This document shows positions 27,453-60,048 of a stretch of DNA of 64,000 nt, one piece after another. The DNA lies in the NCBI RefSeq assembly GCF_022846255.1, contig NZ_AP025682.1. The stretch is one strand, 5' to 3'. Below the pieces are notes generated by a model that was not told where the DNA came from, searched no databases, and saw only the letters and a program-made list of their open reading frames with translations. The stretch comes from Escherichia coli. Its GTDB lineage: Bacteria > Pseudomonadota > Gammaproteobacteria > Enterobacterales > Enterobacteriaceae. Positions within the stretch are counted from its first letter, which is position 1, and each line of letters starts with the position of its first letter. Position numbers and translations under genes: made by a program.

Positions 27453-27881
27453 TTACTTGTCGATAAACGGCACGATCAAGAGATCCGCACTCAACTTATT
27501 GATCATCCCGCGATATGCCGGCATCAAACGGTTGATAAATGAGTGGTGATGACCACAGACAAGGAGGTCGCACTGCTCTTTTTGCATAATTTCCAGCAGT
27601 GTTTCCGGCATTTCTCCGCGTTCAATACGCAGTTTTGTCTTCGGCCATTGAATATTTTTCGTCAGTTTATACAGCTTGTTATCCGACTTATTCTTCAACA
27701 ATTGAAGAATATCTTCTGTTGCAGGGAAGTAGATACCCGGATACAACTCGCTTAAGCCATCATCAATATGAATTAACGTCAGGTGAGCGTCATTATGTCT
27801 GGCGAGCTCCAGGGCTTTATTCACCAGTAAGGCATCTTCTTCATTCCCGGAAATTGCCACGCCAATGTGTTTATAAGCCAT
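27453..27881 (-). CDS. uspD: universal stress protein D
   Basis: 142 aa, [27 protein letters not shown]. Confidence 0.9.
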
Positions 27882-56974: not shown

Positions 56975-57057
56975 TATAAGTTCAAGTAAAACAGCCTTGT
57001 ATTAATACCAGAATAAGGGCATCTGGTTTTTTATATTCATGAATAAAAAAACTTTTG

Positions 57058-57276
57058 TCATTCCTTATGCTGCTTACATAGTTCTTCAACACCAACTGCC
57101 TCGTCCCTTTGCCTGCCGCCTTTTGCCTTACGCACCGGAAATTGCTGCCGCTCCAGATATTGCTCTACCGCTTCGCGTAAAATTGCAGAGCGCGAAACCT
57201 TACGCCATCCCCGAAGCTTGTTCAGCCGTTTAATTGCCTCTTCTGATAAATGAAGAAAAACCGTATTCATCGCCAT
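57058..57276 (-). CDS. ribbon-helix-helix (CopG-like) putative transcriptional regulator, YiiE/YiiF-like
   Basis: 72 aa from MAMNTVFLHLSEEAIKRLNKL; SD AAGGTGG upstream. Confidence 0.7.
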   Translation of the reverse strand: MAMNTVFLHLSEEAIKRLNKLRGWRKVSRSAILREAVEQYLERQQFPVRKAKGGRQRDEAVGVEELCKQHKE

Positions 57277-57374
57277 TACCACCACCTTACATATATTACT
57301 CATTAATGTATGTGCGAAAATTACGCCGGAAAGTTAATTAACGAAAGCGGATTTTTTCATATTGTTTTGTTTTT

Positions 57375-57414
57375 GCGAGACGGCATCCAAAGATAATGTA
57401 ACAGTTTCAGTTAT
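57375..57414. repeat. repeat copy B: GCGAGACGGCATCCAAAGAT plus TGTAACAGTTTCAGTTAT, upstream of the RHH gene
   Basis: contains tandem CAGTT pentamers; candidate operator. Confidence 0.6.
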
Positions 57415-57502
57415 TTCAATTGTTACTCAAAAATGGTTTATTACTTTTAATTAAGCGGGGGCACATCTACAGGAAAGAAACAACAAATAATAAGGATGAA
57501 TT

Positions 57503-57619
57503 ATGGATGCTATAAATATTTTATATTCAAGAATATTTTTTGATTGGGTCTTCATTTGCTTCATCAGGATGGTGTACCCGAAAAAGTCAGCAGCTTTACC
57601 GCACCAGGGTTTAAGGTGA
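57503..57619 (+). CDS. candidate small hydrophobic protein (38 aa), unannotated-type sORF
   Basis: SD TAAGGA 7 nt upstream of ATG; MDAINILYSRIFFDWVFICFIRMVYPKKSAALPHQGLR; stem-loop at 57637-57663 downstream. Confidence 0.3.
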   Translation: MDAINILYSRIFFDWVFICFIRMVYPKKSAALPHQGLR

Positions 57620-57671
57620 AATCTACCATTCATAACGACCGGTCAGTGCCGCACCAACCGGTCTTTAATTG

Positions 57672-57950
57672 TTAGTAGTAGTAAATTTGTGGATAACAGT
57701 CCGGGAACCAGACGATTCCTTCCGGATCATCCCCCTGCATTACCCGATGACATTGGCGTCGATCATCTGCGCGACGGCGAAGCGTAGTATAGAGCCGCTT
57801 CCATTCATGATCGCCCGGTGTACTGTAGTTTACCCAACAATCCATTGAAGGGTGACGCCATTTACCTGTAAGTGTTGGGATCCCTGAATGCTTATGCGGC
57901 TTCGCTTTACCATTACGATCCCTATCTTTACGCGTATTAAACGTGGACAT
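57672..57950 (-). CDS. hypothetical basic Cys/Trp-rich small protein (92 aa)
   Basis: strong SD AGGAGA 7 nt upstream of ATG. Confidence 0.45.
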   Translation of the reverse strand: MSTFNTRKDRDRNGKAKPHKHSGIPTLTGKWRHPSMDCWVNYSTPGDHEWKRLYTTLRRRADDRRQCHRVMQGDDPEGIVWFPDCYPQIYYY

Positions 57951-58011
57951 TTTTAGTCTCCTGTTAAGAGTTCTAAAAATGTGCTTCCTTAAAATAGTTC
58001 ATCATTTTCCC

Positions 58012-58224
58012 TTAATTCGCATAGCGTGCTTTTGCACGAATTTCCGATACGCGGGGACCATTATGATAGCGTCGATGCCCACACATCCAACAAGAACAAA
58101 TACAGGGAGTACGAAAGCAAATACCTGATGCTTTTTTGCTTCCATCGCCTGCAGTGCGATAACGACAGCGGATTTTTTTTAATCGCACCATATGATGGCG
58201 ACGTTCAGCACGATTACGGGTCAT
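58012..58224 (-). CDS. hypothetical Arg- and Cys-rich small protein (70 aa), possible zinc-binding
   Basis: strong SD AGGAG 7 nt upstream of ATG; cluster CFRTPCICSCWMCGH. Confidence 0.4.
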   Translation of the reverse strand: MTRNRAERRHHMVRLKKIRCRYRTAGDGSKKASGICFRTPCICSCWMCGHRRYHNGPRVSEIRAKARYAN

Positions 58225-58308
58225 AGCAAAACTCCTGAGCAGGCGGCACTATGCCGCTTTCATAGGAGTTCTGAATGCTGGTGCTTTCTGTATGGCATAA
58301 CCATGCCT

Positions 58309-58599
58309 CTAACGGTTAAGTGCTTGCAGCACATGTTGCGGATCATTGGCAATCGCTCGCAGCAAAGCCTTTGCAGGCCCGGTCGGTGAACGTCGCCCCT
58401 GCTCCCAGTTACGCAACGTGTCTACGCTTACGGAAATAAGATCGGCAAATTTAGATTGTGACAACCCTGAAGCGCGGCGTATTTCTTTGATTTTCATAGC
58501 ATCAACTTCAAAAGTCCGTGAAGGCTGTCGCGTTCCTTCAATAATTTCATTCATCTGGGCCATGCTGTGAGTCAACCGCTCAAAAAGTGCCTTATCCAT
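58309..58599 (-). CDS. XRE-family HTH antitoxin (HigA-like)
   Basis: 96 aa; HTH IRRASGLSQSKFADLISVSVDTLRNWEQGRR; start abuts toxin stop. Confidence 0.7.
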   Translation of the reverse strand: MDKALFERLTHSMAQMNEIIEGTRQPSRTFEVDAMKIKEIRRASGLSQSKFADLISVSVDTLRNWEQGRRSPTGPAKALLRAIANDPQHVLQALNR

Positions 58600-58911
58600 T
58601 TACCACCTCGTATTTAACAACCGGAGCATTGCTTTTTCCTGGGGAGACAGATCATCTTTAATACCCTTACGATAAATAAGCAGTAATCTGATCTCATAAT
58701 GTTTAACCTGATGAAAGTAAATAACCCTGACACCAGCACGTTTCCCCTTTCCTCCTGAGACCCATCGAACCTTTCTTAACCCACCAGTTTCAGGTATTAC
58801 CTCACCATAGTCAGGATTCAAGGCCAGGAAAAACTGAAAACGACTGAATTCATCGTCGTTCAGCAGTTTTTGAACATCTTCAGTAAAAATTTCCGTTTCG
58901 ATGAAGAGCAT
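58600..58911 (-). CDS. RelE/ParE-superfamily toxin (HigB-like, toxin-first operon)
   Basis: 103 aa; small basic protein immediately upstream of the HTH antitoxin. Confidence 0.6.
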   Translation of the reverse strand: MLFIETEIFTEDVQKLLNDDEFSRFQFFLALNPDYGEVIPETGGLRKVRWVSGGKGKRAGVRVIYFHQVKHYEIRLLLIYRKGIKDDLSPQEKAMLRLLNTRW

Positions 58912-58948
58912 AATTATACGCCATTGGCTTAGAGTAACAATCCTTTTT

Positions 58949-58965
58949 GTACGTCATTGACGTAC
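58949..58965. promoter_or_regulatory. perfect palindrome GTACGTCA-t-TGACGTAC upstream of toxin gene; candidate TA operator
   Basis: 8-bp arms; adjacent to TTGTTA-16-TATAAT promoter-like hexamers. Confidence 0.5.
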
Positions 58966-59035
58966 CATTGAAACCACTAGCTTACTGATAGTGCTCCAGC
59001 AAAACCACGTCTCTGCCGGGTTTGTCTTTACATTT

Positions 59036-59053
59036 GCGAGGCGCTTTCCAGAT
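59036..59053. repeat. repeat copy C: GCGAGGCGCTTTCCAGAT, 11 bp upstream of esterase start
   Basis: 17 of 18 identical to 56935-56952. Confidence 0.7.
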
Positions 59054-59064
59054 TTTTCACGCCC

Positions 59065-60048
59065 GTGAATTTCCCTGTATCCATCCAGCAAAAACGGGTG
59101 TATAAAACTGTACATTCATACAGCAAAATGAGTTCTACTATGGCACTGGAAAAAGGAATTGCAGAGTTAGTCGAAGAGTTTATCGCTGCGGGTCGCCCCT
59201 CATCGCGCCAACAAAGTATTACGCAGCGCAGAGAGGGCTATATCGCCAGCGCTGTCCTTGCGGGTGAGACAGAAACGCGGGTAGATATTCAGACTATCGA
59301 ACTTGAAGGGATGACCTTACGAATAGTGTCACCGCTGAATGCCCCGACATTACTCCCGACGATAATTTATTACTACGGTGGCTGTTTTGTTAGCGGCGGG
59401 TTCGCAACTCACGACAACCAGCTGCGCCAGTTAGCCTATTACGGGCAATGTCGGATTATTGCCGTCCAGTATCGGCTGGCACCGGAACATACTTTCCCCG
59501 CCGCCCATGATGATGCACAACGAGGTGCAGAATTAGTCCGGCAACACGCCGAACGACTCGGCGTTGATAAACAACGAATAACTCTTGCCGGTGACAGTGC
59601 GGGAGGGCATCTGGCGCTGGTAACTGCTTTGCGATTGAAGCGTGCTGGCGAGTGGCAACCAGCACAACTCATCTTAATTTATCCTATGCTTGATGCGACT
59701 GCGCATTTCGAAAGCTACATACGCAATGGTCACGATTACATCATCACACGCGACACTTTACTGAGCGGCTTTGAGATGTACCTGCCAGGCATTGAACGCA
59801 GGCATCCTGAAGCCAGCCCTATTTGGCGCAATGATTTCAATGGCTTGCCACCTGTACATATCATTACCGCTGAATACGACCCACTTTGCGATGAAGGTGA
59901 AGCGTTGTATCACCGCATGACAGGGCAAGGAGTGCAATGCACCTGCCAACGCTACCTTGGCGTTATCCACGGATTTTTTCAGTTAGGTGGTATCAGTGAG
60001 GCTGCGCGATCGGCGCTACGGGATGTTGCCTGGAGAGCGGGAAGGTAA
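59065..60048 (+). CDS. alpha/beta-hydrolase esterase/lipase (hormone-sensitive-lipase family); start uncertain (GTG 59065, ATG 59128 or 59140)
   Basis: GDSAGG nucleophile elbow, YYGGCF oxyanion motif, C-terminal HGF. Confidence 0.7.
   Translation: MNFPVSIQQKRVYKTVHSYSKMSSTMALEKGIAELVEEFIAAGRPSSRQQSITQRREGYIASAVLAGETETRVDIQTIELEGMTLRIVSPLNAPTLLPTIIYYYGGCFVSGGFATHDNQLRQLAYYGQCRIIAVQYRLAPEHTFPAAHDDAQRGAELVRQHAERLGVDKQRITLAGDSAGGHLALVTALRLKRAGEWQPAQLILIYPMLDATAHFESYIRNGHDYIITRDTLLSGFEMYLPGIERRHPEASPIWRNDFNGLPPVHIITAEYDPLCDEGEALYHRMTGQGVQCTCQRYLGVIHGFFQLGGISEAARSALRDVAWRAGR

Follow-up and report, generated by a model that had tools for sequence, protein, structure and literature searches.

Two small open reading frames (ORFs) lie next to each other on the minus strand at positions 57,672-58,224 of a 64,000-nucleotide stretch of Escherichia coli DNA (contig NZ_AP025682.1, assembly GCF_022846255.1), the whole of which is referred to here as the window. 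They are called ORF70 and ORF92 after the lengths of their products. The segment that holds them, 57000-59100, is 100% identical to CFT073, Nissle 1917, ABU 83972 and ATCC 25922 (E. coli phylogroup B2). The two genes are:

57672-57950, minus strand: ORF92, 92 amino acids, basic and aromatic-rich, a member of an unnamed family (WxRLxxTxxRRA…GxDPxG…P…YYY/YYW); RefSeq WP_001296612.1
58012-58224, minus strand: ORF70, 70 amino acids, Arg-rich, with a CxCxCxxC motif, a member of the T5 ORF053 / PHROG 4499 family

A preliminary description, made from the sequence alone, placed both frames at these positions, co-directional with a ribbon-helix-helix (RHH) gene and each preceded by the Shine-Dalgarno (SD) sequence AGGAG. 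All of this is present in the DNA: the SDs lie 7 nt 5' of the ATG, at 58236-58232 for ORF70 and at 57962-57958 for ORF92, and the two peptides that were quoted, CFRTPCICSCWMCGH and HPSMDCWVNYSTPGDHEWKR, occur in the translations. Both small proteins are basic as described, with a pI of 11.1 and a net charge of +16 for ORF70 and a pI of 9.5 and a net charge of +6 for ORF92. In RefSeq, ORF92 is labelled a hypothetical protein; ORF70 appears as WP_000197774.1 in some genomes and is unannotated in the CFT073 record. Overall, the earlier observation is confirmed and its interpretation is partly supported.

Two separate protein-coding genes

Paired loci were gathered from a genome scan and from contig look-ups. 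Homologues of the two genes are immediate neighbours, with ORF70 upstream, at 13 loci in nine genera of Enterobacterales: Escherichia, Klebsiella, Salmonella (on the chromosome and on an IncFIB plasmid), Edwardsiella, Kosakonia, Atlantibacter, Huaxiibacter, Citrobacter and Mixta. The two are always separate frames, 41-66 nt apart, and their pairwise distance matrices are correlated (r=0.81). The ratio of non-synonymous to synonymous substitution (dN/dS), calculated by the Nei-Gojobori method, is 0.10-0.25 across both genes in comparisons that are not saturated (0.14-0.23 for ORF92). Unsaturated comparisons of Edwardsiella with Kosakonia give 0.10-0.12 for ORF70 and 0.18-0.23 for ORF92, and the more diverged comparisons of E. 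coli with Klebsiella give 0.12-0.19. Chance ORFs of such size occur, yet these two are beyond chance because dN/dS is low and homologues lie in adjacent pairs in many genera. Judged by these comparisons, ORF70 and ORF92 are real protein-coding genes under purifying selection.

An alternative is that the two ORFs are halves of a single frameshifted gene, as the preliminary description had suggested, or are non-coding or spurious frames. The ORFs are short, the CFT073 record lacks one of them, and sequence databases hold many frameshifted ORF70 variants, all of which fit this explanation. Against it, purifying selection acts in precisely these frames, which also rules out spurious frames of a gene on the opposite strand, and two ORFs with a structured spacer are maintained across nine genera. 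The idea of one broken gene fails because the ORF70 family and the ORF92 family each occur alone. In addition, hhalign finds no relation between the two profiles, and the hits from sets of 5.8 billion and 1.8 billion proteins include no natural fusion that spans both. The apparent fusions P0032 and P0135 are read-through artefacts, and a 1665-residue match to the ORF92 profile (P0184) was set aside as a repetitive protein. Finally, the frameshifted variants come from assemblies that have indels in neighbouring genes too. The comparative data thus refute this explanation, to which we assign next to no probability.

The frameshifted ORF70 variants of E. coli were also considered as decay. Since nadS, yiiE and the hydrolase gene carry indels in the same assemblies, the variants are probably assembly errors. 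In GCA_053291645, GCA_053291525 and GCA_013422845, for instance, the contigs with apparent frameshifts in ORF70 and ORF92 also have nadS, yiiE and hydrolase genes that are shortened, which suggests homopolymer errors, such as in the A8 run at 58178-58171, and not real pseudogenes.

Conserved hairpins and mini-ORFs at the two start codons

The "consensus SDs" of the preliminary description are consensus as sequence, but both are base-paired inside hairpins. Geometry and covariation show that these hairpins are conserved and that they lock both SDs. The elements are:

58227-58273, minus strand: ORF70 leader hairpin, in which the anti-SD AACTCCT (58270-58264) pairs with the SD AGGAGTT (58236-58230), with an inner GC hairpin, GCGGCA/TGCCGC (58257-58243)
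58260-58298, minus strand: tentative mini-ORF 5' of ORF70 (MPYRKHQHSELL, then stop), the last codons of which contain the anti-SD and the stop of which lies just after it
57948-57981, minus strand: ORF92 leader hairpin, in which CATTTTTAG (57981-57973) pairs with CTAAAAATG (57956-57948) and encloses the SD AGGAG (57962-57958) and the start codon
57973-58005, minus strand: intergenic mini-ORF, (M)MNYFKEAHF and stop, with an SD, AAGGGA, that abuts the ORF70 stop, and a TAG stop (57975-57973) in the 5' arm of the ORF92 hairpin

The ORF70 leader folds with a minimum free energy of -25.6 kcal/mol (z -4.2). The SD-occluding layout is the minimum free energy fold at 10 of 11 ORF70 loci, and the anti-SDs differ among them (CCUCAU:AUGAGG and UCCGGG:CCCGGA are examples). 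The inner hairpin is 96% paired and has compensatory changes, and none of 500 shuffles reaches its score. The mini-ORF 5' of ORF70 has equivalents in the window, in cryptic Escherichia (L010) and in L011, and each stops 38 nt before the ORF70 ATG; it is tentative because it is absent outside an E. coli/Klebsiella subgroup.

The ORF92 hairpin has a z of -3.65. Across eight sequences, 86.5% of cells are paired, compared with 26-51% when the partners are slid, five pairs have compensatory changes, and again 0 of 500 shuffles reach the score. At all 12 paired loci examined, the intergenic mini-ORF has its own SD and starts just past the ORF70 stop; its end is 24-26 nt short of the ORF92 ATG, within the 5' arm of the hairpin. 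The encoded peptides, of 2-14 codons overall, are unrelated to one another (MNYFKEAHF, MRYIQEHW, MHHDTIGEHL, MYLLQEHF and MR). Several ORF92-family genes that occur without ORF70 have a leader ORF ending in …LDTL, the stop of which lies 27 nt before the ATG. Among four distant members of the family, which are 25-30% identical and come from unrelated metagenomes, three have a mini-ORF stop 18-27 nt before the ATG and a similar hairpin; here the mini-ORF is either MT and stop or a 13-codon ORF (MKPPNRKEARRVG, then stop).

The non-coding DNA of the locus was compared among E. coli, cryptic Escherichia and Klebsiella spallanzanii. Identity is 75-89% in the leader and the intergenic region, compared with 47-60% at third codon positions and 43-61% in the flanks. 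An Rfam search with the ORF70 and ORF92 leaders returned no family and only a chance match to mir-191 (E 0.99). At two loci, those of the Salmonella IncFIB plasmid (L017, 4733-5029) and of Huaxiibacter (L033, 4733-5032), ORF70 is without its usual stop. The resulting 99-residue form reads through the mini-ORF and the hairpin and overlaps the ORF92 start by ~30 nt.

From this layout we infer a relay, ORF70 to mini-ORF to ORF92. As the SD of the mini-ORF abuts the ORF70 stop, a ribosome that finishes ORF70 would feed the mini-ORF. The ribosome on the mini-ORF would then melt the 5' arm of the hairpin and so expose the SD and AUG of ORF92, which would be made only downstream of upstream translation.

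The layout resembles known coupling and occlusion devices, although the proteins belong to no characterised family. SD occlusion is controlled by a leader ORF in the ermC leader and in secM-secA, and translation is coupled to termination in the MS2 coat-lysis pair. As in these systems, a ribosome on a short upstream frame would open a hairpin over SD and AUG. They differ in that they depend on specific stalling peptides or belong to defined operons, whereas the position of the stop alone is conserved here. A second precedent is hok/mok/sok of plasmid R1, where the start of hok is occluded by mRNA structure and is opened by translation of the leader frame, mok. The ORF92 locus shares this occluded start of a small gene, and the pair shares with hok/mok/sok the property of being a small, self-contained module carried on mobile DNA. 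The two differ in that mok overlaps hok, whereas the mini-ORF ends ~25 nt upstream of ORF92, and in that Hok is a hydrophobic membrane peptide, whereas ORF92 is hydrophilic and basic.

This precedent raises the possibility that the ORF92 family consists of type I-like, translation-gated toxins, controlled in cis and by antisense RNA as in hok/mok, with ORF70 an unrelated neighbour that happens to have a similar leader. Such genes would show an SD occluded by an upstream anti-SD and translation that depends on a leader ORF, and the ORF92 sequences are consistent with both. The gating is also kept family-wide, down to solo 612-bp cassettes with ~345 nt of conserved upstream sequence. However, ORF92 has no hydrophobic stretch, unlike nearly all type I toxins. 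A consensus scan also found no plus-strand promoter inside 57672-58300, although antisense RNA itself was not examined. Furthermore, the co-inheritance of ORF70 and ORF92 is too consistent for a chance neighbour. We therefore consider a type I arrangement very doubtful.

The two proteins and their relatives

The preliminary description had found no recognisable family for either protein. This holds for Pfam, NCBIfam and PADLOC, but ORF70 matches PHROG 4499 with an E of 1.4e-13 (residues 3-67 on profile positions 6-73 of 88). By tblastn, homologues that are ~50% identical are present in 442 phage records, nearly all of them T5-like. A scan of viral contigs gave one locus only. Profile searching retrieves T5 ORF053/T5.055 and chromosomal copies in Salmonella, Lelliottia, Edwardsiella, Klebsiella, Vibrio and Photobacterium. 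The literature was searched for the T5 homologue genes and for the RefSeq proteins of ORF70 and ORF92, and no published work on them was found.

The invariant positions of ORF70 are R5, A6, R8, R9, H10, H11, R14, K16, R19, Y22, G34, T39, P40, C41, C43, S44, C45, W46, M47, C48, G49, R52, G56, E61 and R63. The core, RRHH…TPCxCSCWMCG, is retained in ~35 diverse homologues. Substitutions in the Cys motif are rare; in L015 and P0139 its first Cys is replaced by Thr or Ser. The sequence reads as an Arg-rich N-terminal helix followed by a CxCxCxxC knuckle. Because C41, C43, C45 and C48 of the TPCxCSCWMCG motif are invariant, as are H10 and H11, binding of zinc and nucleic acid by ORF70 is plausible. 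The confidence of AlphaFold2 (AF2) is low at the Cys/His region, as expected when no metal is present.

The T5 protein and ORF70 share ~50% identity over residues 3-67, with the common pattern RRHHxxRxK…Y…G…TPCxCSCWMCG…E.R. An anti-SD/SD fold is found upstream of the T5 gene too, but it is not significant (z -1.6). The proteins of T5-like phages differ in being longer, 91-104 residues, with an acidic C-terminal tail (net -8 over the last 32 residues). They also have no ORF92 partner and are encoded in the phage tRNA region beside a GrcA-like gene. In these phages (L003, 3548-4312; L041, 12487-13251), the homologue adjoins a 122-residue GrcA/YfiD-like gene with a glycyl-radical domain at the edge of the tRNA cluster. 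In phage SP15, the annotation wrongly splits it into two small ORFs, 055 and 056, although the single, GTG-initiated frame of 104 codons is intact. This frame lies at 27486-27800, ~7 kb from the experimentally tested ORF71-75. Part of the dispensable, tRNA-rich region of T5 and SP15 is an experimentally defined anti-defence island (bioRxiv 10.1101/2023.03.15.532788). In Vibrio and Photobacterium (L039, 2880-3400; L038, 3001-3219), the ORF70 homologue is a single superintegron cassette between attC/VCR-like repeats, and an anti-SD/SD hairpin lies upstream of it.

Close relatives of ORF92 are few: when 1.8 billion cluster representatives were searched exhaustively with a profile, 72 matched at E<=1e-3, and a Pfam search with 35 members of the family returned nothing. 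The C-terminal motif of the family is PxWWxRLxxTRPRRA…GxDPDG…KPxxYYW. Also conserved are the N-terminus, MSxFNxRxDRxxxGxPxPH, a Trp, an RR(R)A stretch, GxDPDG and the aromatic C-terminus. Twelve of the 92 residues are aromatic and 28 are charged. The preliminary description had ascribed Cys clusters to both proteins and had proposed that they bind zinc or nucleic acid. Both ideas suit ORF70, with its four invariant Cys; ORF92 is not a Cys-cluster protein, as none of three alignments of the family (A1, A3 and A4) has a conserved Cys column, and it has no conserved Cys/His ligand set.

ORF92-family genes of 76-87 codons occur alone in Pantoea, Mixta and Rouxiella. A family gene of 76 codons also lies with ~345 nt of conserved, AT-rich upstream DNA in a 612-bp cassette (3656-4267 in L024, L025 and L026; 4657-5268 in L019). 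The left boundary of the cassette is identical in different contexts and, in three contigs, it is directly beside an IS3-family element, so that it may itself be mobile. At one Mixta locus (L013, 4582-5544), two ORF92-family paralogues, of 77 and 83 residues, lie in tandem after ORF70, and the second has its own …LDTL leader and hairpin.

Mobility, neighbouring genes and possible function

The context of the ORF70-ORF92 pair varies across lineages. A constant third gene was sought and rejected, as the upstream neighbours are HigBA, a 211-residue protein without assignment, a weakly uracil-DNA glycosylase-like protein of 194 residues or a zinc-ribbon-like protein of 133. In Salmonella, the pair lies beside Dnd and SNF2/AAA/S8 islands, and one family member is beside JetCD. 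The ORF70 family occurs alone in T5-like phages, in the 104-residue form with the acidic tail, and in the Vibrio superintegron cassette. In K. spallanzanii, a whole island (hydrolase, HigBA-like pair, ORF70, ORF92 and RHH gene) occupies the same position between fabY and fdhE.

Of 5426 complete E. coli genomes, 1269 have the full region. Another ~2100, including EDL933, retain only a remnant with a 390-bp deletion that corresponds to 57781-58170 of the window. K-12 likewise has no intact pair. Going by these genomes, the module is ancestral to much of the species. The EDL933 remnant (L008, 2501-2800) is unannotated, and the clean deletion joins 54 nt from the 5' end of ORF70 to ~110 nt from the 3' end of ORF92; in this strain, two other hypothetical genes take the place of HigBA and the hydrolase. 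The Leclercia locus has an ORF70 pseudogene and an open ORF92 frame that has lost the near-invariant Trp, a state that fits joint decay and does not discriminate between models. Between fabY and the pair, a cryptic Escherichia (L010, 2009-3274) has tandem repeats of ~150 bp that together span ~1.2 kb. They read as a repetitive ORF of 421 codons but are probably elements of the repetitive extragenic palindrome/bacterial interspersed mosaic element (REP/BIME) type rather than a gene.

In the window, the gene order is fdoH, fdoI, fdhE, yiiE, ORF92, ORF70, NadS/HigA-like, RelE/HigB-like, alpha/beta hydrolase (plus strand) and fabY. The features that flank the two genes are:

57058-57303, minus strand: yiiE, the RHH gene, co-directional with both small ORFs
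57580-57663, minus strand: end of the unit on its 3' side, with a hairpin of 12 bp, GACCGGTTGGTG…CACTGACCGGTC (57663-57637), followed by a terminator-like hairpin and T-run (57602-57580)
58309-58599, minus strand: NadS/HigA-like (MqsA-like) helix-turn-helix (HTH) gene, 3' partner of the RelE/HigB-like gene
58600-58911, minus strand: RelE/HigB-like gene, 103 amino acids; PHROG 5869, weak Pfam RelE

The RelE/HigB-like and NadS/HigA-like genes probably form a type II toxin-antitoxin (TA) pair. A consensus scan placed a promoter-like site at 58940-58913, 5' of the HigB-like gene, and a terminator-like one at 57602-57590, after ORF92, and found no promoter-like site in the interval between nadS and ORF70. 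For these reasons, ORF70 and ORF92 are likely co-transcribed with the HigBA-like pair, with transcription starting at the HigBA promoter-like site. A GC hairpin follows directly 3' of ORF92 at most other loci examined, with a T-run at several. The spacer between ORF92 and yiiE (57304-57671) is ~370 bp long and AT-rich, with weak promoter-like sites on the minus strand at 57516-57487 and 57419-57390; an ORF of 60 codons within it (57451-57633) is without support.

As to function, we lean slightly towards reading the pair as a mobile two-gene module with relay-coupled translation, in which both proteins probably bind nucleic acid. With less confidence than for the relay, ORF70 would do so through the zinc knuckle and the Arg-rich helix, and ORF92 would bind nucleic acid too and would be harmful if made alone, with ORF70 as its partner or modulator; the toxin/partner role is thus put forward as possible. 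The module would be a conflict-type unit of mobile elements, and the T5 homologue with its acidic tail would be the phage-side counterpart. Occluded starts characterise toxic small genes such as hok. Also counted in favour are the charge and aromatic content of the proteins, residence on a plasmid and in integron and IS (insertion sequence)-adjacent cassettes, and proximity to Dnd, SNF2/AAA/S8, JetCD and TA genes, the last being the HigB/HigA-like genes in the window. The location of the T5 homologue in a dispensable, tRNA-rich region is a further point.

A number of observations weigh against this reading. No characterised homologue emerged: Pfam, NCBIfam and PADLOC match neither protein, profile searches of the PDB gave only a chance match (E 1.5), and Foldseek found no PDB match to the AF2 model of ORF92 alone or to that of the fused proteins. 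The former has a mean predicted local distance difference test score (pLDDT) of 66; it is extended and partly confident, with two confident helices (47-54 and 58-71) and little else. The latter, made from a linker-fused ORF70+ORF92 with a paired alignment, has a pLDDT of 64 and a predicted template modelling score (pTM) of 0.32, so that a confident complex is not predicted. The two proteins are both basic, whereas a toxin-antitoxin pair usually consists of an acidic antitoxin and a basic toxin. Each family also occurs alone, so ORF70 cannot be strictly required by ORF92, nor can neutralising ORF92 be the sole reason for ORF70 to exist. The module is dispensable, given that ~2100 E. coli genomes have lost the pair by the 390-bp deletion. 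As for the relay, it is deduced from geometry and covariation, the mini-ORF upstream of ORF70 is not a general feature, and the fourth distant ORF92-family member (L032) lacks the mini-ORF/hairpin layout.

Several of these points bear on a more conventional proposal as well, namely that the pair is a classical type II TA system, in which ORF70 is a DNA-binding antitoxin that is made first, ORF92 is a toxin neutralised by direct binding, and loss of the module kills or arrests the cell. The pair resembles type II systems, such as the adjacent HigB/RelE-like and NadS/HigA-like genes, in being small and co-directional, with the upstream product made first (here through the relay), and in being carried on plasmids and islands, including defence islands. 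The co-inheritance of the two genes and the tight translational repression of a toxin-like gene would suit it too. It differs from them in that no toxin or antitoxin family is matched in any of the databases above, in that neither protein is acidic, and in that the genes are separated by a mini-ORF spacer instead of overlapping. Solo ORF92 genes are common and solo ORF70 genes occur, so that co-occurrence is not obligate, and the modelled fusion offers no confident complex. The Leclercia locus, with ORF70 decayed and the ORF92 frame open, is a further point against, though it is tempered by the lost Trp. On balance, a classical type II system appears unlikely.

A non-toxic role was also considered, in which the proteins are small regulators of neighbouring genes or of the carrier element, with the hairpins serving autogenous translational control as in ribosomal-protein operons. 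The strong positive charge and Arg-rich helix would suit such a role, as would the conserved, structured leaders, which might be targets of the proteins, and the position in the window between the HigBA-like pair and the RHH regulator. However, an HTH, RHH or other DNA-binding domain was detected in neither protein, and the geometry of the mini-ORF favours opening by ribosomes over protein binding. There is also no constant target gene, as the neighbours differ in every lineage. We judge this role to be quite improbable.

The conflict-type reading can be taken further. The ORF92 family could be a new kind of growth inhibitor, hydrophilic and directed at nucleic acid, that is gated in cis by a universal mini-ORF/hairpin switch. 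ORF70 would be the zinc-knuckle partner that neutralises or directs it, and the acidic-tail homologue of T5 would be a counter-measure, making the whole a module of conflict between bacterium and phage. This fuller version is speculative, and we think it improbable as it stands.

What is new is that two "hypothetical" ORFs are real genes under purifying selection, which move together among enteric genera, plasmids and defence islands, and that ORF70 is kin to a conserved gene of T5-like phages. In addition, most members of the ORF92 family that were examined have a signature: a mini-ORF, sometimes only Met-X-stop, that ends within the 5' arm of a hairpin in which the SD and AUG are hidden. This signature offers a simple, testable model of obligate translational coupling, and it flags the ORF92 family as one that is kept tightly shut, as harmful or conflict-related proteins typically are. 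Should the toxin/partner reading be true, the pair would be a new small-protein system and would give a function to a widespread T5 gene. If it is false, the pair would be a clean natural example of relay coupling via a minimal upstream ORF.

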